The notes below the pieces were generated by a model that saw nothing but the letters and a program-made list of their open reading frames with translations, was not told the origin of the DNA and searched no databases. 64,000 nucleotides of DNA from Peribolospora baueri. Its lineage: Eukaryota. The stretch lies in contig JAMDHS010000020.1 in the NCBI GenBank assembly GCA_029717555.1, positions 186,001 to 250,000 of the forward strand, written 5' to 3'. Position 1 is the stretch's first letter. Each line of letters starts with the position of its first letter. Below are positions 36,307 through 46,758 of the stretch, in pieces. The position numbers and the translations under genes were made by a program.

Positions 36307-37049
36307 GGCGGGCGCGGAAGGAGAACTATAGTGATGGAGGGGACGGTGGTGCTCGTTGTCGTCGTCTTGACGGTGAGCCGGGCTATACAGATCACGTCAG
36401 GGAGAAGGGCGTGGGCGTCGTCGTTGCTCGATCACAGGGAAAAGGGGGGTGCGAGCGCGGGGTCGTAAGAGGGCGAGTAGAGGTGAGAAAAGAGAGCACA
36501 TGCAAACAACTGGTCGCCCGTCGTCCGTTCACTGCTGTCCCGGCCGCCTTGCTGTTCCCTAGATCCGGTATCGGGATTATGAGAGGTACAACAGCTCTTT
36601 TTGTCCGCCGGCGTGGTTGCTGGCCGGGAAGGACGAGCGTGATAGATCGCCGACGCGAAGGCGGCGCCGGGAGGGAGGCAGAGGGAGGGTATTGTACGTG
36701 CGGGGCCGGCGTGGTCAACCTGGAGTGCGTTGAGAAGAGAAGTCGTCTCCGAGGGGTAAGAGAGGAGATGGAGAAGGATGGAACGGAATGGGAATGGGAA
36801 TGCGTTCACTCCTCCGGCTCGGTCACCCGACTGCCCAAGCGGGGAAAGCGGAGGTGGGCGCGGCTACTGTGCTGCGGCAGATCACGGGCGCGCGCCATTT
36901 GAACGATTATCCCTCCGCAGCCCACTTCAATTGCCGTCGTCATGGGGCGTCGGACTCAATAAAGGTCCATAGAGTACACGCTCTTCGATAGTACGTACGG
37001 TTTACGCATAGTCCGGCGCATACGCATACCTTTCCCTGCGCGACAGGCG

Positions 37050-37079
37050 GTGGGAAATCGGGGCGTCGCTCATTCCCAC
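37050..37079. promoter_or_regulatory. Head-to-head pair of CSL-type elements (GTGGGAA-N16-TTCCCAC)
   Basis: GTGGGAA at 37050-37056 and TTCCCAC at 37073-37079, ~185 bp upstream of the CSL gene ATG. Confidence 0.55.
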
Positions 37080-37263
37080 CATCGAACCTCCTTCGTCCCC
37101 ACGACCCGCAACACCGCCAACCCACAACGCAAGGCCGCGCCGGCGACCACTTGTTCTCGCGTCGGCCATCGCGGTCCGTCGTTCGCCGTTCGCCGGCGGC
37201 AGCGGATCTAGCCAGCTTGAGTCCAAATACACACGTTTCCCAGTGAGCGCGGCTGAACAGACG

Positions 37264-40200
37264 ATGGCGTCGCCATCCGACGGGGAAGTTGCCGCCGTCG
37301 CCAAAGCCGCTCTTGGAGCACAGGGAGAAGAACAAGGCCGACAAAGCACGGTCGACGATCGGCAGGAGCATCCCCATTCTTCCCCTGGCGTCCAGGATGG
37401 TCACGATGGCCGTCATCCCGAGCAGCACCTCGCCGCCGAAGTGGGCGGTGAGGTGGGAGAAGGGCAGGCGGTCACTTCTGCAGAGGAGCACCAGCAAGAG
37501 GAAGAAGACATGGGGCTGAGTGATGATGAGCGAGCCAGAGCGGCGGCCGCGGCGGCGGTCGCAGCTGCTGCCACTGGTGGAGAGGAGTCGTCCTCTCTTC
37601 AAGCAGCCGACACGTCGTCTCCTCTCGGTTCGAGCAGCGCGTTAACCATACCCACCTCCGGCTCTGAGGCGGTGTCGGACGACGAAAACGCCCAGCACAA
37701 CCTCGCCGTGCTCCTCAACGCCATCGAACAGCCCGGCCTCGCCGCCGCCGCCGCCGCTGCCGCCGCCTCTAACGGGGTGCCGACTTCAGCAGCAGCCAAT
37801 CAGCCCGGCCACCCTATTCCGTCGTCCGAACCTCCCAGCTTCAATATTCAGTCTCTCCTCGCTGCTTCGCAGCATCTTGCCTCCCCCCCTGACGATGGCT
37901 CCGTTCGATCAGCCAGTCAGCAGGCCAGCGCCGCTTCTGCCGCCGCTGTCTTCTCGCGTCTGGACCAAGCGGCTCTGGCTCGTGTTCTCGTCGAGGCGCA
38001 TGCTCGCTCTATCGCTGCTGCCGCCGCCGCCGCCGCCGCCAGCGCCGGTCAGTCGCCATCGCCGGGTCCGTCGATGGGAAAGAAGCGTAAATGGGCCGAT
38101 TTACCGTCGGACGACCGTCGTTCAAAAATTAGGCGTACCGTGCGCGACCACCTTGCCATCACCGGTCATGGCGGTGGCTATCTCTCCCCCACCTCCATCA
38201 CGTCTTATACGCAGCAGTCGCGTTCGTCCATGACCACAGTGTCCTGCCTGCATGCATCCGTCGCTCAGAAATCTTACGGCTCCGAGAAGCGCTTCCTCTG
38301 TCCTCCGCCGGTGGTGCGAATCACTGGCCCTCTTCGCCACTATCCTTCTCCATCCTCGGCCATGACGGCCAGCGAAGACGACTGTCCGATCAGCATGGCA
38401 GTCGTCAACGACATGGGCGACCGGTCCGCGGAGCAGAAAAGCGCTTTGGATGAAGCCATGCAGGCGCGCTTCAAATATCTCCACGTCGGAGGCACCGCCA
38501 AGGCGAAGCAGTTCAGGCTGCAGCTCAACTTGCTCAAGCCGCCAGAGCCGGAGCAGCACCGTCAAGATCATCCTCACGCCTTGTCTCAGCTACCCGACGT
38601 TGGCGGTCACCACTTCAGCTCGTCCGGCGAGGATCACTCTGACCCCTCTCACGGTCATCATCAGGACGACGTGAACGGCGACGAGGCTGCAGCTGCTGCC
38701 GCGGTTGCTGCCGTGGCTGCTCAGATAGCTCAGAGTCAGCCTCAGTCCGGTGATGGGTCGGCTGGCCATTCGTCGTCCTCCGGTCCTCCCGCCCTCTCTC
38801 GCTCGCAACCTTGGGCCTCCTTCGAATCAGCTCCGATCACCATCATCTCCAAACCCTCCAAAAAGACGGCCAAGACGCGCAACGCGTCGTCATACATCCT
38901 CTCCGGGTCTCTTGTCAGCCTCTTCAACCGCATCAACAGCCAGACTGTTCGCACGAAGTACATGTGCGTCGAGGACGGCCGGCTGTGCGCTCGCAACAGC
39001 AGTTGGAGCGCCTTTCGCATCACCCAGATCGGCAAGCCTTCGCCTCCTGGGCCCCATGGCGCCGGCGGAGGCATTATGGCTTTGGGCACCGGCGACAACC
39101 AACCCATCACGTACGGCAGCATTGTCGTGCTCACCGATTCGGTCACCGGCGTCAGCAGCGACCCGCTTGTCGTTTGCAAGGTAGACAAGGGCAAGATCAG
39201 CCTACCTCAGCTCCAGCCGACACCACCTGCCGAGCAGACGGGAGACGTGCAGGGGCACCAGGAGGAGCACGCACAGCATGAGACGGAAGAGGAACATCGA
39301 CCAGCAGACGACGTGCAGCATGGACAGGAGCCGAACTCCGGACTTCCTACGGATCCTCAGCTTCGAGCGATGGCCGAAGCGGCCGTCGCGGCTGCAGCGG
39401 CCGCGCAGCAGCAGCAGCAGAAGGAGGTGCTTCAGGACGGGATGAAGAACGAGGTCGAAGGCGCGGAGCAATCATCGAACGACCTTTCGTCCATGGCGGC
39501 CGACGCGGAGCGCGCTGCTGCTGCCGCAGCTGCCGCGCAAGCGTTCTCCGCGCTCAGTGCAAACACTGACGTGGGCGCGTCTGCCGGCGGTCCCGCATCA
39601 TCATCTGCGTCAGCTCCCGCGCAGCAACCTCCCGCAAAGTTGACGGTGACCGAGGACGCGAACGCGTACGGCCCTGTGGCGCAGATGCAAAAGGTGGCCC
39701 TCTTGCGCTACATCCCGGACATTAATCCGGACGGCTCGTCCTCGTCCTTCTTTCGCGTTTCCGAAGGCGGCATTCCCAAGCCCTTGCTCACGGGGCAGAG
39801 GACATATCTATGCGCAACAGTGTTCGAGCGATGGCGCGATGGCGGAACGTCCGAGATGGATCCAGGCGATCTCTCTCCAGCGTTGACTTACCCAGCCGGT
39901 CCACCGCCCCATCCCGGCTCTGGTAGCGTTCCTTCTGCCAGCGCAACTGCCGCATTTGCCGCCAGCGCCCTCGCCGCCGCGCCTGGTCCGAGCGAGATGA
40001 TGGGAGGCTTGCATCAGGAGCATCAACACCAGCAGTCACAGCAGGGACAAGGTCACAGCGGCAACGGTTACGAAACGCCGTCTATGCCGCAGACAGGAAG
40101 CGAGGGCGGAAGGAGCCGCGGTGGCCATCACCGGGCGGCCGCTCACCCGCCCACGAGTGTCTTGAGCTTCGCGCCGCCGAGGACGGAGCGGATCACGAGG

Positions 40201-41419
40201 GAGGATGGGAGCACCATTGAACAGGACAGCGTGGAAGATATATATTGTTGGAGCGTCGTGGGCATTTGTGAGTGCTTGTCGTCTTTGTTGCGTCTTGTAT
40301 TCCGGTTCTCAAGTTGTTATGAGCTCACTCTTTTCTTTTCTTTTCTTTCTTTTCGGTGACCGCTCGACAGCATCGTTCGAATACACTTTTTTCGAGGCCG
40401 CGCCCACCTCGACATCTTCGGCGGGTACCGACGTAGAAGACGAGAACGCCCTCCCGCCTCCTACTCTCCCCATAACGCCTTTCCCCATATTTACCGCGCC
40501 GCCGTACTACAACCTTCGCTCGCACACCCTCGAGCTCAAGGTGCAAAACTACTACTACGCCCTCCCTCCCGAGCATGTCGGCGATGGCATCGGCCAGCAA
40601 AGAAATTCGACTATGGTCCCGCTCGAAGTTTGGCTCGGGCCGCTCGGGCCGCTGGAGACTAAGGTGCAAAACGACGCGCAAAAGACGGGAGAGGCGCTGC
40701 TGACGGTGCAGATGCCCAAGATTCCGGAGATCCTTAAGGCGCTCGACGAAGAGAAGGTGGAGGAGGACCGCGGCCATCACCCACACCAGCTCGGACAGGA
40801 TGGTCGGTCCGCATCCGTTAACCCGGCTTTGCAGACGAGCGCCACCGCCGCCGATGAGAGCGATGTGTCTCGCGGCGATGGGTCAGGCGAGGCGACGACA
40901 AACCGGGGGGGCGAGGGCGTGTCACCTGCTGAGGCTGTTGCCATTGCCGCCGCCGCCATCCGTGGCTCGGATGTGGCCGTGGACGGAGGGTCGGGTGGTG
41001 TGCCGGGTACGCAGAACGCAAGCCTGGACGAGACGCACAATTACCTCGAGGAACCCTCTTCTCCAACGCAGGACCACCATCAGCAGCAGCAACACGCCGC
41101 CGCTGGAGAACATGGGCAGGGCTCGTCGGAACCAGGAGCAGAAGACCATGAGCGCGCGCCCTCATCCTCGTCACCTGCGCCTCCCCCCGCTCCGGTCCCG
41201 GTCCCGCAAACGAAAACGCTCCCGATCCTCTTCATCCGGGGCCTTGACGGCTGCGGGTACCACACGGGCCGGTACGTCGCGGCAGACGACCTGATCGCCC
41301 TCGTTGGAGCTGCGGGCAGCGCGAGCGCTGCGAACGCGCTCAGGAATTTGGGCGTGGGCATCGGCGGGCCGAACGGGTTTGGAGGGACCACTGGCGCTTG
41401 GAGCTTGAGGGTTGTTTGA
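37264..41419 (+). CDS. CSL (CBF1/Su(H)/LAG-1) family transcription factor, fungal type
   Basis: LAG1-DNA-binding motif HASVAQKSYGSEKRFLCPPP, ISKPSKKT, and beta-trefoil LFNRINSQTVRTKYM..SWSAF. Intron 40268-40370 joins WSVVGI|SSFEYTFF. C-terminal LPILFIR..G.GY. Long Ala/Gln/His low-complexity inserts. Confidence 0.93.
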
Positions 41420-41737
41420 ATGCGCGCGAGGCGATGCGAAGCGGCAGTCAATTTTTTCTCCTTTTTTTTCTTTTTTTTTTTTTTCCTTCCTCCTACTTTC
41501 TTCCTTCTTCCGTTGTTACTTTGCGTTCCTCCTCTGGCTGGCCTATGTTCTCTCCGTTCCATGCATGCATGCTATGTGCTGTCGAAGGGCTTTTCCTACA
41601 AAGTAACGAACGTACTGGCTGTCGCACCTCGAAGTGATCTGGAGGTTAGGGTTAGCGCGATCCAAGTGGATGATGCTTCCCTTCCGCTTCTCTCGCGTGC
41701 CCCAGACTGAACGCTTAAGGACGCAGAGGGACGCATC

Positions 41738-44271
41738 ATGGTCCTCCCACCCCAGCGCGGATCTCTCAGCATCCTCCTTTACCATGTCTCTCTGGCAAAG
41801 CCCCGGTGGAGTGATTTTCGTTCGCTTTCCAGCTCCTCGACGAGGTGGCAGCCGCCCAGCCCTGGACCATCCTCCGATCACGCTCCCCGTAACCCGCTCC
41901 AGCAACTACGCGATCTCCGGCGCCTTCTGAACGAGGTCGGCACCAGCAATCGGCCGATATACAAGACGGATGCTTTGCAGCGCACCCCATGGCTCTGGGG
42001 GCTGCTTTTCACGTAAGTGCTATTTTCGACGATCAGTCCACCATCCTCGTTCGAATGCCAGTGGTCGCTCACGGGCAGCGATGGATGCGGGTATATAGTC
42101 GAGACTGACCTTGTTCGGACTCACAGCGTGTACGAACCGGATACGCGCTTCCGCATGTCTTCGGCCGCTTTGTCTGCTTACCTCGAGCTTCGCAAGAAGG
42201 ACAACGCCTGGCAAGCGGACCCGTCGTTACCGACAGCGTCTTTAGCCCGCCGAGGCAAGCAAAAGACCTTCGACGCGGCCTCCCGCGATCTGCTGCTGAT
42301 GAATGCGCCCCACTTCGACTCGGTCGAGGACCTCCTCTCCGCGCTTCGCGACGGAGTTGCGACCGGAATGCAGGCGAAAGCGATGTGCGAGCGCTTCTTG
42401 AAAGAGCACGGCATTTTGGAGGAGGAGCGGAGGATTTGGGAGAGAGGCCAGGGCGCGGCGGGGGAAGACAGTGTGGGAGAGTCGATCGCGCGGCTTTCGT
42501 TGCTGCCTACGCCCTTGGAACTGTTCTATCGTCTCATAGATCGGAACCTCAAGGCAGGATTCAACTATAAGCTTCTTCGCTCGGCTTTCGAGCGTAGTCG
42601 TCAGTTCGACGAAGAGTTCGGCAGGGTTGCTCGATTAAAATCTGCTTCCTCGTCAACAGCCTCCGGTTCCAAGGCGGTTTCAAGCACCAAATGCTCAGCG
42701 ACTTCGACAGGAATTTTTTCGATGCCTAAACCGTTCGAGATCGCTCTGGGAAAGACCATCAAGCGCTCTGAAGTGGATAGTCTTTTCGCCGCCAGACCGA
42801 AAGCGTCGTCGACGCTTTCCGCAGGGACGGGGGACTGGTACGCGTCTCGCAAGCTCGACGGTATACGTTGCCTCGTCTTCATCGACATACCGCTCGCCGT
42901 TATCCAAGAGGAAAACGGACCTGTCGATGCGGACGTGCAGATCAGAACCTTGTCTCGCAGCGGAAAGGAGTTTGTCAGCCTAGATCGACTCAAGGAGGCA
43001 CTCTTGGTCTTAGTCCACTCTCCCGCCATCAAACGCTTGGCTTCCATGTCGGCAAAGCAGACGGAAGAGCTCGGAGGAGACAAGAGTCCTTTGCCGGACT
43101 GCGCGCGGATCGTGCTGGACGGCGAGGTGTGCTCGCTCGTCCCAGCCGGCACTTCGGCCAAGCAGACTGTCGGCGCCGTCCCTTCAACGCAAGACACAGC
43201 CTTCGAGGCGGAAAACGAGCAAATCGAATTCGTCGAGGACTTTCGCTCCATCGCTTCCCTCGTGATGCGTAGGTCGGGAGAGCAAATTCCCTCGCCGGCA
43301 TATTTCGTACTTGACGCGCTCACCTATCCCGAATTTGCGCAGTGGGAGGACTTCGATTCGAGAGGGGGTACCCGATCGTTCAAAGAGAGGAGGGAAATTG
43401 TCGAGGGAATACATGATTGGATAGCGATGGAGGAGGGTCGTCAAGTAGGTTCCCTTGACAGGGAAAAAGGAGCGGCCGTCAAGGCGAAGAAGCTGAGCGA
43501 GGTTGTGAGAAGGTTGGAGCAGAAGTTAGTCAAATCGCCGCACGAGTGCTTGCAGGCGATGGGCGAAGCGTGCACGAAAGGGTGGGAAGGCATCGTCTTG
43601 AGGAGGGACGTGGGCCACGAGGGGAAGAGGAGGTACGTTCCGGTCTGGCGTCCGCTCGATTACGGCGCCTGAAGATGCTGAAAGCTGATGACAATTGGGA
43701 TTGTGGCCATGTCCGGTCCATTGCTCCTGCGCCCCATTGCGTGCGGCCAAATTCAGCTCCAACATCCGCAAGTTCAAAGAATGGAACGATGCAGAGTACG
43801 TCGTCAAGTCTATCGAGTCGAGCCGCCAGCGTTTGGCAGTCAACGGCGTGTATGAGGACAGAGAGGCACTAGCTAACGTGTGGATCGAGCATAAAGGTGC
43901 GTGCCGTGTCGGGCGCTTCGACTGCCATCCTTCTGGCAAACTGGCGCGCCCTCCTGTTCCGTTCATTCACATAGCTGGCCACGTCGCATCTCCTCTCCTG
44001 GCCCATGCTTCGCCCGGTACTTTCCCGAAATGCAGGCCACCCTGTCGCGGTCGGCTCAGGCTTCACCACGGACCAGCGATTACGCTATCACGCGGACCCC
44101 TCCTTGATCGTGGGCAAGCAGATCACCGTCGAGTACTTCGAGGAGAGCGAGAGCAAGGAACGCCTCGCTTCTCTTGCCAGCGCTGACGGAGATAATGGTG
44201 AAGGGCCAGCGCTCAGCTTGCGCTTTCCGAGGGTGAAGCACGTGTATGAAGAGGGAGAGAGGGAGATTTGA
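41738..44271 (+). CDS. ATP-dependent DNA ligase of phage/bacterial (T4-like) architecture, possibly mitochondrial; 4 exons
   Basis: Motif I SRKLDGIR, III VLDGEV, IIIa YFVLDAL, IV WEGIVLR, HEGKRS|SNIRKFK (motif V), VGSGFT, VI LRFPR. Introns 42013-42126, 43633-43756 and 43897-44035 all restore frame. Confidence 0.9.
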
Positions 44272-44687
44272 GGCAACCATGCAAGGTCACCGGATTGAAG
44301 GTCAACTCGTTCAAAGCCAGACTCATCCGATACCCATCCGGACGTCCTGCTTGCCGTGTTCCCTGCACCGACCTAAACTATACGTCGTCGGATCGAGGGC
44401 TAAAAAAATGGAATAAAAAAGAAAAAGAACGGCAAGACAACTCCTCCGCCTGTACGAACCACGCCTTTTCCACTTATCCTGCGGGCACACTGGTACCCAC
44501 AGAGCGCACTGCCCATCTCTCCGTGCAATACGATGCCGTTTCACAAAGAGCACAAGTTATACAAGGTCCGAAGAAAGGAATAGGATAGTCGACGAGGATC
44601 ATGATCTAGAGCGAGCGAGGACGCGGCTCCGGAGCAGACAGGAGGAACAAGGGCGGCACGTAAGGGAGGGGGAGATGCAGACAGAGT

Positions 44688-45647
44688 TCACTGGGAGAGG
44701 ATCTGGCGAACGAAGGCTTCGTAGTTGATGTTGCCGTCGCTGCGAACAGGTATGACGATTCATCAGAAGTAAGTTTAAGTGTAGGCGTCAAGAGAAGATA
44801 GTGACACAACGCGTCCGATTCAACTCACCTCCCGACCTGAACCCCCTTGAGAAGCTCGTCTACCTCCTCTTCCGAGAGCTTCTCTCCGAGGTTGGTGAGG
44901 ACATATCGGAGTTCACCGACACCGATGAAACCGTTTCCATCCTTGTCGAACACTTGGAAGCCGCGGATGAACTCGTCTAAAGGAGAATGATAGCGAGAAG
45001 GTAAGGATGGCGAACGTGTTTGGCATCCAGCGAGCGCACAGGTGCGCCCGCTATCCACATCTTGAGGGAAGACAGAAGGCAATGAGGCGCACCTGGAGTT
45101 CCCGCAGGCTTGAAGCCGTTCGGCCGGTTGAGGATGCTCAGGAAGGTCTTGAAGTCGACTGCAAAGATGTAAGCGTTCGGGCGCAAGCGTCAGTCAGCAG
45201 GCCCTCGCATGTTCGCCTTGCCTAAGAAGAGTAGAAGCCCAGAACCGCCGGTTAAGACTTATAATATGGGGGCAGCCGTGGGTGAGCACTCACTGTCTCT
45301 CGGCGCCTGGCTTGCCAACTCGGCTACCTCAGCCTGCGTGGGGTTCTGTCCGAGAGCGCGAAGCAAGTCACCAAGCGACTCGCGCGGGATGGTGTTAGTG
45401 CCCTTCTTGTCAAAGAGAGTGAAAGCCTCTCGGTATTCTGAGTAGAAGATGCGAGCGCACATAGCCATGTTCATATCGAGTCAGCAAGAGGCTACGCAAG
45501 TATGCAGACACCGGCAGGCCGCGCAGGAAGGAAGGGCTCACCAGCTTCGGCGGCAGACTGAATTGTGAGGATCAGAGTTTGAAGCAGAAAGGTCAGCTGT
45601 GGGCAGTGAACATGCGCGGGGTAGGAGCACGGCTAGACACTGACCAT
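44688..45647 (-). CDS. MLC1: Myosin essential light chain (Cdc4/Mlc1-like EF-hand protein)
   Basis: The first coding exon is ATG only. Then [51 protein letters not shown] and [16 protein letters not shown]. Confidence 0.93.
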
Positions 45648-45894
45648 CTTGGATCGTGACAAAGGTCAAATGAGATGGAGGTGCAGAGCTAAGCAAGTCG
45701 ATCCTTCGTTCCCGCCGGGCTGTTTAGGAGTTCCGACCGCACTGACGCCTGGACAGCGCGCCCCCATCACTCGCCGCAGCCAGTACACGTGATGTCAAAT
45801 ACTACCGCAGCACTCCTAACCCTACCTGACCAGAGTGAGTTGCCGGCTTTCTTCCTGGTGAGCACCGCTCAAGACAACACCGGGCATCCTCGCC

Positions 45895-46758
45895 ATGTCA
45901 CTCCCAGGCTTGCTTCTCCCCGTCTCCCGGACGACCTGCTCCTGCGCCCGAAGCGGGGGCCAAGTCCGGAAGCAGGTCCATAAGCAGGCCCTTCGCTCGT
46001 TTTTCGCCAGCACAGTCTCATTTCGGGACGTCGTCGCACCCGGGTCGTCCCCCGGCCAGCAGGACGTGCTGAACGATACTTTCAAGACGATTGGGGAGAT
46101 TACCCGTCTGACAGCCGAGGAAGAAGCTGGAGATGCGTCTAGTTTCTCTGCGCCGTTGGCTTCAGCGGAGCCTGCCGCGCCAGAAGCCGCGGCGTCGACC
46201 CCGTCACCAAGCGACCCGACAGCCCACCCGTCCTCTTCGCCCTCCTCTCCGACCTCTTCCTTCGCCGCCATGTTCGGCAATCGGTTATCGCCACAGGACG
46301 TTCCGACCACTGGCTACGCTCATTTCGCACCCCCACCGCGCAATGACCCGTTGCTAAGTTTCATGACCAACCTGATCATGAAGAGCGGCAAGAAGGCGCG
46401 CGCAGAGCATTACCTCGGCTCGGCGCTCGCCGAAATCCGCCTACGCACCAACTCGGACCCTCTCCCCCTTGTCCGTCGCGCCGTGGAGATGGCAAGCCCG
46501 CTTGTGCGCATGACCACCTTGCGCACGGGGGCCAAGTCCATCCCCACGCCGTCCCCACTGACGGACAGGCAGAGGACGCGGCAAGCGATCACGTGGATCC
46601 TCGAGGCCAGCAATAAGCGCAACGAGGGGCGCTTCCACGTCCGTCTTGCTCAGGAGCTCATCGCCGTCGTCAATGGTGCTAGTTCCGTGTTGGCCAAGAA
46701 GGAGGAGGTACACCGCATGGCTTTCAACAACAGGGCCAACGCTTCCGTGAGGGTGTGA
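45895..46758 (+). CDS. RSM7: Mitochondrial ribosomal protein uS7m
   Basis: Presequence-like N-terminus. S7 core: MTNLIMKSGKKARA..P.PL..RQR.RQAITWIL..KKEEVHRMAFNNRAN. Intronless. Confidence 0.92.
   Translation: MSLPGLLLPVSRTTCSCARSGGQVRKQVHKQALRSFFASTVSFRDVVAPGSSPGQQDVLNDTFKTIGEITRLTAEEEAGDASSFSAPLASAEPAAPEAAASTPSPSDPTAHPSSSPSSPTSSFAAMFGNRLSPQDVPTTGYAHFAPPPRNDPLLSFMTNLIMKSGKKARAEHYLGSALAEIRLRTNSDPLPLVRRAVEMASPLVRMTTLRTGAKSIPTPSPLTDRQRTRQAITWILEASNKRNEGRFHVRLAQELIAVVNGASSVLAKKEEVHRMAFNNRANASVRV

Follow-up and report, generated by a model that had tools for sequence, protein, structure and literature searches.

A phage-type, three-domain ATP-dependent DNA ligase gene in the fungus Peribolospora baueri and its possible mitochondrial role

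The window analyzed here is a stretch of 64,000 nucleotides of the Peribolospora baueri contig JAMDHS010000020.1 (positions 186,001 to 250,000, assembly GCA_029717555.1), and all coordinates refer to this stretch. It harbors a ligase gene at positions 41738-44271 of the + strand, consisting of four exons and three GT..AG introns. The spliced coding sequence of 2157 nt is translated into a protein of 718 aa and contains a single, terminal stop codon. The ATG at 41738 shows an A at -3 and a G at +4 and follows 30 nt behind an in-frame TGA; no further Met occurs in frame before residue 102, which is located within the DNA-binding domain. If intron 1 is left unspliced, an immediate stop appears in frame, and the spliced protein matches 11 homologues end to end in an alignment that is gap-free at 3/3 splice junctions. 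With a GC content of 0.58 and a GC3 of 0.69, the gene is similar to its neighbors.

All features of the gene are encoded on the + strand. Exon 1 (41738-42012) starts with the start codon and residues 1-50, an N-terminal extension (41738..41887), since the conserved domain begins at about residue 51 of the alignment. The rest of exon 1 (41888..42012) encodes the first helices of a T4/Pmar-type DNA-binding domain, as seen in alignment and profile; helix 1 carries the invariant Lys. Behind intron 1 (42013..42126; 114 nt, GTAAGT..CAG), whose junction is gap-free relative to the homologues, exon 2 (42127-43632) encodes in its first part (42127..42652) the remaining helical DNA-binding domain and a lineage-specific helical insertion, both visible in an AlphaFold model. 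Its second part (42725..43632) corresponds to the nucleotidyltransferase (adenylation) domain, which holds motifs I to IV and is delimited by phrog_114 and invariant columns. The alignment locates motif I (SRKLDGIRC) at 42845..42871 with the catalytic lysine codon AAG (Lys334) at 42851-42853, motif III (LDGEV) at 43115..43129, and motif IV (WEGIVLR) at 43583..43603. It likewise defines intron 2 (43633..43756; 124 nt, GTACGT..CAG), exon 3 (43757..43896), where motif V (RKFK, 43767-43778) is located and the OB domain begins, and intron 3 (43897..44035; 139 nt, GTGCGT..CAG). Exon 4 (44036..44271) encodes the rest of the OB_2-type domain, as judged from PF14743, phrog_114, and alignment, followed by motif VI (LRFPRVK, 44218-44238; alignment) and the TGA stop.

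The six ligase motifs are all kept (I KLDG, III LDGEV, IIIa FVLD, IV EGIVLR, V RKFK, and VI LRFPR), and so are 26/26 invariant columns of a 22-sequence alignment in exon 2. An earlier reading of this DNA, the first-pass annotation, had described the nucleotidyltransferase motifs as intact across three introns, which is confirmed by these results and by the open 718-aa frame. Exon 2 alone yields no match to Pfam PF01068 (DNA_ligase_A_M) at E<=1, motif V being located in exon 3; exon 4 alone matches PF14743 with E 6.5e-6 and 26.5 bits, under the 28-bit cut-off, its domain being split by intron 3. Among the other family members, 15/16 match PF01068 at E<=1e-3 (13 above the gathering score) and 16/16 match PF14743 at the same level (several under the cut-off). 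The failure of PF01068 to detect exon 2, along with an end branch of 1.16-1.34 in the trees, characterizes the ligase as a divergent protein. No NCBIfam family is found for exon 2 at E<=0.01. The family placement of the locus's own sequence is based on profile and structure comparison and on the PHROGs family phrog_114 (ATP-dependent DNA ligase), which is matched by exon 2 (E 1.3e-16, residues 232-493 of the exon 2 translation) and exon 4 (E 1.9e-6). The long branch, the missing Pfam match, and large low-complexity insertions of low pLDDT could also mean that the ligase is a remnant of an old transfer, in decay or catalytically dead. This explanation is highly improbable, as the 718-codon frame remains open across three introns with its motifs and invariant columns, and the family has been kept across two fungal phyla.

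Profile, profile-profile, and structure comparisons agree in assigning the ligase to the three-domain T4/Pmar type and not to Lig1/3/4, as had been proposed for this locus. In a search of solved structures, the family profile reaches Pmar-Lig of Prochlorococcus marinus (PDB 6rar, 6ras, 6rau, 6rce) over its full length with E 1.2e-45 and T4 ligase with E 2e-32, versus 4.6e-20 for Lig E (4d05), 2.6e-13 for Lig4, 2.1e-7 for Lig3, and 1e-4 for Lig1. Only this profile arrives at solved structures; phmmer with exon 2 finds no match among PDB sequences at E<=1. The N-terminal helical region had been suggested to follow the T4-type DNA-binding domain, and it indeed does: the profile matches this domain of T4 ligase alone (5wfy) with E 1.6e-11, and the hhalign alignment to T4 gp30 (PDB 6dt1; probability 99.45, E 4.8e-22, 409 columns) sets in at residue 4 of gp30, so that homology spans all three domains. 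The AlphaFold model of exon 2 shows helices at 12-173, with low pLDDT at the low-complexity insertions 171-196 and 350-364, and aligns in both domains to Pmar-Lig and T4 ligase with VIA Z scores of 17.7 and 17.4, respectively. A full-length model of the Violaceomyces homologue obtains Z 25.4 to Pmar-Lig (rmsd 3.5 A, 402/432 residues) and 24.4 to T4, with the best Lig1 row at 21.1.

Pmar-Lig is thus the best match in sequence and structure, sharing the order of a seven-helix DNA-binding domain, an NTase domain, and an OB_2 domain. In contrast to the fungal protein, this enzyme is bacterial or phage-like, measures about 430-440 aa, and lacks introns, large insertions, and an N-terminal extension; identity amounts to about 20-24%. 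The DNA-binding domains of T4 ligase and Pmar-Lig are described as near-identical in structure (PMC7470946). In the trees, T4 gp30 falls outside the group uniting the fungal clade with its compact relatives, at the end of a very long branch; the fungal clade hence shares the T4-type architecture but is not a close relative of T4. Weak matches to PF09414 (RNA_ligase) or PF01331 (capping enzyme) over the adenylation domain of some relatives might point to RNA or DNA/RNA hybrids as the main substrate instead of DNA nicks, with a role in RNA repair or another nucleic-acid transaction. These matches overlap PF01068 and score lower, the protein combines the DNA-binding domain with NTase, OB_2, and motif VI, and the top structural hits are DNA ligases in complex with nicked DNA, which makes an RNA substrate very unlikely.

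Neither BRCT nor PF04675 or PF04679 is detected by Pfam in the locus's exons or in 16 family members, in line with the first-pass annotation, which had noted the absence of BRCT and of a Lig1/Lig4-style N-terminal domain. Lig1 and Lig3 belong to a separate ligase family with PF04675 and PF04679, and Lig3 and Lig4 carry BRCT or zinc-finger modules.

The nearest non-fungal relatives are ligases of about 430 aa on phage contigs. In the nearest ESM Atlas clusters, the viral share is 92-100% in every row but one (80%), and relatives are encoded by at least 570 IMG/VR stretches. In 5/5 loci examined, the ligase gene lies among phage DNA-metabolism genes, with 27/44 ORFs matching PHROGs. Prokaryotic genomes contribute 24 loci, namely 23 MAG or uncultured records and one Peptacetobacter isolate, with no clear cellular donor among them. 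The fungal clade has a phage sister group, and the phage/bacterial-type reading postulated earlier is supported by these phage-borne relatives; its neighbors among the compact phage-type sequences are weakly supported in FastTree and form a polytomy in IQ-TREE. The fungal sequences themselves form a single clade in both trees, with a support of 100 in FastTree (33/83 rows) and an SH-aLRT of 100 in IQ-TREE (32/61 rows). Basidiomycota and Mortierellomycotina subclades obtain 100 each, which fits vertical descent. Presumably, an early fungal ancestor acquired the ligase from a tailed-phage-like lineage; subsequently, the gene would have been inherited vertically and would have gained introns, insertions, and the N-terminal extension.

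Members of the clade originate from two fungal phyla (Ustilaginomycotina, Tremellomycetes, Mortierellomycotina, and Mucoromycotina) and include CNAG_02549 of Cryptococcus neoformans. All named records found for the clade are hypothetical, uncharacterized, or carry an automatic ligase-domain name. That such a ligase is not characterized in fungi, as had been claimed, holds insofar as the literature search found no functional or localization study of the clade and nothing on CNAG_02549, which may be mentioned in the supplementary tables of Cryptococcus screens, outside this search. The claim needs qualification since fungal NT-OB_2 ligase clusters have already been mentioned and called virtually unknown (PMC7470946), and 'LigK' has been noted in many fungi (PMC6264785). 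Compared by published description, the NT-OB_2 clusters #6 and #11 of Williamson and Leiros (2020; PMC7470946) are of particular relevance. Cluster #11 is described there as restricted to Basidiomycota and mostly longer than 600 residues, with Pfam recognizing NT and one other domain, a description that fits the fungal ligase clade; the passages on both clusters mention no T4-like DNA-binding domain, presequence, or phage sister group.

The catalytic core of PF01068 and PF14743 is common to the fungal clade and the Lig E/'LigK' group. Lig E is described as a two-domain enzyme without a helical DNA-binding domain, bacterial representatives carrying a periplasmic signal (PMC7470946), whereas the fungal ligase has the DNA-binding domain (profile, hhalign). 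According to literature descriptions, the fungal clade can be likened to the kinetoplastid ligases LIG k-alpha and k-beta, which possess the same core (PMC10665377) and are mitochondrial (PMC10719067). For LigE-type ligases of eukaryotes, a prokaryotic or viral source has been put forward, and in the same paper the PBZ-bearing LigE known from Mortierella and bdelloid rotifers figures as a radiation-induced repair ligase, without being described as mitochondrial (PMC10665377). MvLigE and AvLigE contain PBZ fingers, in contrast to the fungal ligase family: none is present in the locus's exons or, at E<=1e-3, in 16 members, nine of which are Mortierellomycotina. The PBZ-bearing LigE is a more distant relative of the clade. 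NCBIfam NF006592 scores 45-59 bits for two fungal members, with a cut-off of 200, and does not match exon 2.

The N-terminal extension is missing from the phage-type relatives. Within the first 40 residues, the P. baueri protein contains 5 Arg+Lys, 10 Ser+Thr, and one acidic residue, Asp at position 26, so the description of this segment as acid-poor was correct. Its hydrophobic moment is modest (0.59), residues 38-50 are Pro-rich, and it is less convincing as a presequence than the extensions of many homologues. Up to one acidic residue in the first 40 is found in 23/32 fungal members, all with a net positive charge, versus 1/45 compact phage-type relatives, which average 5.5 acidic residues. 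CNAG_02549, Exobasidium, and Syncephalastrum show the same pattern. The extensions of the clade have no mutual sequence similarity in the alignment, as is typical of presequences. The other 9/32 fungal members have 2-3 acidic residues; among these exceptions, the starts of P0008 and P0026 may be mis-called. Since the front end of the protein resembles a mitochondrial address label, the enzyme may be an unrecognized mitochondrial DNA ligase. The first-pass annotation had arrived at this reading as well; the evidence for it is indirect, namely the recurrence of acid-poor, basic extensions in the fungal clade without sequence conservation, and mitochondrial import is suggested by N-terminal composition only.

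Our preferred reading, to which we assign a probability of about 0.5, is that of an active phage-type ATP-dependent ligase, acquired from a phage by a fungal ancestor, imported by a presequence, and sealing nicks in mtDNA. In this reading, Lys334 would be adenylated by ATP, and the ligase would encircle nicked duplex DNA to seal 3'-OH/5'-phosphate nicks. Somewhat more speculatively, residues 1 to 30-50 might serve as a cleavable presequence directing the protein to mitochondria, where it could close nicks during the replication and base-excision repair of mtDNA as a dedicated mitochondrial ligase beside nuclear Lig1 and Lig4.

Alternatively, the same active enzyme could act in the nucleus or cytosol in accessory repair, e.g. 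as a stress, single-strand-break, or end-joining back-up, with the LigE/LigK of bdelloid rotifers and Mortierella as a model and the extension as a disordered linker or regulatory tail. Eukaryote-acquired LigE-type ligases are described as radiation-induced repair enzymes (PMC10665377; PMC6264785), disordered N-termini rich in Ser/Pro/Arg can resemble presequences in nuclear proteins too, and 9/32 fungal rows are not acid-free. Moreover, the N-termini of the Mortierella members P0034, P0187, and P0162 are rich in Lys, Pro, and Ser, with a nuclear rather than a mitochondrial appearance reminiscent of nuclear localization signals. We consider this alternative serious, though on the unlikely side, given the acid-poor, basic, non-conserved N-terminus of 23/32 members in two phyla, the lack of PBZ, BRCT, or another nuclear repair-targeting module in the 16 members scanned, and the lack of a classical basic NLS pattern, by simple regex, in the locus's protein.

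In yeast, Cdc9/Lig1 serves nucleus and mitochondria from one gene; mitochondrial isoforms are known of this ligase and, in vertebrates, of Lig3. If the targeting is assigned correctly, these isoforms would perform the same job as the fungal ligase, the sealing of mtDNA nicks after presequence import. One P. baueri gene might accordingly supply both compartments, as yeast Cdc9/Lig1 does. Such dual targeting has precedents in the Lig1 and Lig3 isoforms, NLS and MtLS boxes are mentioned in PMC7470946, and the weak presequence of the protein would permit partial import. It is nevertheless improbable, as the same regex search for an NLS is negative and the next Met lies inside the DNA-binding domain, leaving no obvious second start for an intact nuclear isoform.

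If the ligase is imported as preferred, the mtDNA of many fungi would be maintained by a phage-type enzyme without a human counterpart, the known phage ancestry of mitochondrial replication would extend to its ligation step, and a family now hypothetical or automatically named would receive a function; Cryptococcus and smut fungi would possess a fungus-specific enzyme. The textbook mitochondrial ligase of fungi is the Lig1 (Cdc9) isoform, and the phage-derived enzymes of mtDNA are the T7-like RNA polymerase, Twinkle, and Pol gamma. That the clade as a whole, including CNAG_02549, serves much of the fungal kingdom (Mucoromycota and the Basidiomycota yeast lineages) as dedicated mitochondrial DNA ligase, and is hence a fourth such enzyme, is a doubtful generalization for now. 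If true, it would suggest, along with kinetoplastid k-alpha and k-beta, a phage-type OB_2 ligase as the early eukaryotic mitochondrial ligase, later replaced by Lig1/Lig3 isoforms in ascomycete yeasts and animals. Even for a nuclear enzyme, one ancient phage-to-fungus transfer would have given rise to a three-domain ligase that is conserved and contains introns as well as lineage-specific insertions.

Two minor observations concern the N-terminus. A signal peptide was considered and rejected: residues 9-20 are moderately hydrophobic and broken by Ser, Tyr, and His, and in the homologues the N-termini are rich in Arg and lack hydrophobic character. A bacterial-type ribosomal S7 gene within the 64-kb window shows a similar N-terminus.

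The ligase gene at 41738-44271 (forward strand) is real and intact. Its ATG at 41738 (context CATCATGG) follows an in-frame TGA 30 nt upstream, as read across 41200-44800. Three forward-strand introns, at 42013-42126 (GTAAGT..CAG), 43633-43756 (GTACGT..CAG), and 43897-44035 (GTGCGT..CAG), have ends matching the fungal consensus, and the unspliced frame meets a stop directly after exon 1. Joining the four exons by script gave 2157 nt, i.e. 718 codons with a single stop at the end. In an alignment with 11 homologues, the junctions are gap-free and the C-terminus of the spliced protein coincides exactly with those of the homologues. Splicing, the 718 open codons and this alignment bear out the gene as placed by the first-pass annotation. 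Its GC content (0.58; GC3 0.69) is similar to that of the adjoining genes. Approximately 200-290 nt 5' of the ATG, at 41446-41530, lies a long T/CT-rich polypyrimidine tract, possibly a promoter element or one free of nucleosomes.

The encoded protein is, with high confidence, a three-domain ATP-dependent DNA ligase of the phage T4/Pmar type (Pmar-Lig, the Prochlorococcus marinus enzyme); on sequence criteria, it is divergent but clearly placed. Exon 2 gave no Pfam match at E<=1 and no phmmer match among PDB sequences, and a sub-threshold hit of exon 4 to PF14743 is the sole Pfam match of the ligase. A word-indexed search (E<=1e-3; 7999 candidates scored) retrieved 41 relatives with at most 35% identity, most of them containing PF01068 and PF14743. 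In PHROGs, exon 2 (E 1.3e-16) and exon 4 (E 1.9e-6) both hit phrog_114, 'ATP-dependent DNA ligase'. At E<=0.01, a profile built from 21 family sequences hit 48 different PDB sequences, among them full-length Pmar-Lig (1.2e-45), T4 DNA ligase 6dt1 (2e-32), Lig E 4d05 (core only, 4.6e-20), Chlorella virus ligase (about 2e-18), Lig4 (2.6e-13), the isolated T4 N-terminal DNA-binding domain 5wfy (1.6e-11), Lig3 (2.1e-7), and Lig1 (1e-4). With exon 2 as first row of the family alignment, hhalign paired the family with T4 gp30, the T4 DNA ligase, from residue 4 over 409 columns (probability 99.45, E 4.8e-22). The nucleotidyltransferase motifs had been described as intact, and indeed motifs I, III, IIIa, IV, V, and VI were all found in the alignment and exon 2 retains 26/26 invariant columns of a 22-sequence alignment. 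The absence of BRCT and of a Lig1/Lig4-style N-terminal domain also held: BRCT, PBZ, PF04675, and PF04679 were found neither in the ligase exons nor in the 16 family members scanned.

Predicted structures point the same way. For the AlphaFold model of exon 2 (mean pLDDT 77.8), Pmar-Lig and T4 ligase were the top-ranked Foldseek matches, and VIA-align yielded Z scores of 17.7 and 17.4, respectively, with both domains spanned, versus 17.0 for the ASFV ligase (core only) and 14-15 for archaeal ligases and Lig1. Matches were stronger with the full-length Violaceomyces homologue P0008 (pLDDT 79.1): Z 25.4 and rmsd 3.5 A over 402 of 432 residues for Pmar-Lig, Z 24.4 and rmsd 3.7 A over 411 residues for T4 ligase, and 21.1 for the best Lig1 row. 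Profile scores favour Pmar-Lig and T4 ligase over Lig1 and Lig4, and structure scores favour them over Lig1. According to a review (PMC7470946), the DNA-binding domains of Pmar-Lig and T4 ligase are alike in being reduced to seven helices. The T4-type N-terminal domain proposed in the first-pass annotation is therefore correct, and the 5wfy match, hhalign and the structural alignments agree with it. The DNA-binding domain contains an inserted helical hairpin, modelled with confidence (42160-42300, corresponding to residues 12-59 in the translation of exon 2; pLDDT about 92), which is common to Ustilaginomycotina homologues and lacking in compact phage-type ligases.

An exhaustive profile search returned 19,413 representatives at E<=1e-3 (2,525 at E<=1e-30). 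Among the best 150, 123 newly found ones are compact (<500 aa) and 24 comprise >=500 aa, nearly all due to N-terminal extensions. Fungal names are borne by 17/20 long relatives looked up, from Ustilaginomycotina (Testicularia), Tremellomycetes (Kwoniella, Tremella, Cutaneotrichosporon, Cryptococcus sp., Cryptotrichosporon, Vanrija, Kockovaella), Mortierellomycotina (four Mortierella, Dissophora, Lunasporangiospora, Podila), and Mucoromycotina (Calcarisporiella, Jimgerdemannia); the others are one cluster with a fern-labelled record and two unnamed entries. Further relatives came from a second profile search: Cryptococcus gattii, C. neoformans (CNAG_02549), Saitozyma, Exobasidium, Modicella, Entomortierella, and Syncephalastrum. 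All named records are labelled hypothetical or uncharacterized or bear an automatic domain name only. The fern-labelled record (P0197, Adiantum nelumboides), a member of the fungal P0086 cluster, is likely fungal DNA within a plant assembly. In Jimgerdemannia flammicorona (P0113/P0200), the ligase makes up the C-terminal third of two models, 1743 and 2063 aa long, annotated as an EH-domain protein; this probably reflects genes run together in the annotation rather than a true fusion.

The compact relatives are viral. The nearest ESM Atlas clusters consist of 92-100% viruses in all rows but one (80%), most commonly Uroviricota, and IMG/VR contains at least 570 stretches coding for relatives. 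At 5/5 loci inspected, the ligase matches phrog_114 (E 1e-74 to 1e-88) and is flanked by phage genes, e.g. exonuclease, endonuclease V, helicase, homing endonucleases, and NAMPT; 27/44 ORFs at these loci had PHROGs matches. A tblastn search with a compact member hit 1030 cultured-phage records, each at <60% identity, and one-per-species prokaryote genomes held only 24 loci with relatives, 23 of them in MAG or uncultured records.

A FastTree phylogeny of 83 rows (the Peribolospora protein, 24 named fungal, 10 unnamed long, and 45 compact sequences, the latter every third of the 123 plus 4, and the ligases of T4, SPO1, and Geobacillus virus E3) united all 25 fungal and 8 unnamed long rows in one clade (support 100). 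IQ-TREE (61 rows, LG+C20 PMSF, quick search; a truncated Malassezia model and 21 compact rows excluded) recovered the same clade (32 rows, SH-aLRT 100), including Basidiomycota (20 rows) and Mortierellomycotina (10 rows), each at 100. The Peribolospora protein lies within Basidiomycota on a long branch (1.34), its top identity being to Violaceomyces (40-43% over aligned columns). Since branching within the clade tracks fungal taxonomy, the sequences point to one old acquisition followed by vertical inheritance. T4 gp30 falls far outside the clade; among the compact rows, its neighbours were weakly supported in FastTree and formed a polytomy in IQ-TREE. Two long unnamed sequences, P0120 and P0153, fall among the compact viral ligases, outside the fungal clade. 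P0120 (metagenomic, 698 aa) carries an N-terminal 2-cysteine adaptor domain (2C_adapt, PF08793, E 6.6e-12), which is associated with giant viruses.

Phage-type relatives begin directly at the DNA-binding domain, and fungal members possess about 20 to over 300 additional, mutually unalignable N-terminal residues. In the fungal clade, the first 40 residues contain <=1 acidic residue in 23/32 rows and <=2 in 26/32, and are net positive in 32/32, compared with <=1 in 1/45 compact relatives (mean 5.5 acidic residues). Tested by a within-protein binomial against each protein's own downstream acidic fraction (11-17%), the depletion reached P <0.05 in 22/32 fungal rows. Many homologues start with Met-Leu-Arg or Arg/Ser/Ala/Leu-rich strings of textbook appearance; in the Peribolospora protein, 5 R+K, 1 D/E, and 10 S/T (P 0.014) agree with the acid-poor N-terminus noted previously. 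A mitochondrial role is the best single reading, with a probability of about one half, or more when dual targeting is included. This role is inferred from how the N-termini compare in composition and from kinetoplastid precedent. Against it, 9/32 fungal rows contain 2-3 acidic residues within the first 40, three rows of the Mortierella group look nuclear, being rich in Lys, Pro, and Ser, and the Peribolospora extension is only moderately amphipathic.

The precedent stems from kinetoplastid ligase K, regarded as a divergent LigE (PMC10665377), both kinetoplastid enzymes being mitochondrial (PMC10719067); the former source also renames the rotifer enzyme LigE and reports a PBZ-bearing, radiation-induced Mortierella LigE. 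The fungal clade is old and uncharacterised. The earlier statement that such a ligase is not known to be characterised in fungi stands insofar as no functional or localisation study of the clade was found in the article texts searched, but two papers already list exclusively fungal NT-OB_2 clusters (#6 Ascomycota, #11 Basidiomycota), termed 'virtually unknown' (PMC7470946), and 'LigK' in many fungi (PMC6264785). The accessible text of this literature yielded no mention, for this clade, of a T4-like DNA-binding domain, a presequence or a phage sister group.

Upstream of the ligase, a long open frame (37012-41419, forward strand) carries LAG1 DNA-binding (PF09271, E 1.9e-21) and beta-trefoil (PF09270) domains and therefore encodes a CSL-type transcription factor; beyond the domains comes an extended low-complexity stretch, whose end lies shortly before the promoter region of the ligase. 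Downstream, a bacterial-type ribosomal protein S7 (45862-46758, forward strand; PF00177, E 6.6e-34), probably that of the mitochondrial small subunit, is preceded by ~160 residues including a basic N-terminus poor in acidic residues and a spacer rich in Ser, Pro, and Ala. By informal comparison of presequence style, this N-terminus is comparable to that of the ligase. Between the two, an EF-hand exon (44825-45193, reverse strand; PF13499 and PF13405) of a calmodulin-like or myosin-light-chain-like gene converges on the 3' end of the ligase.
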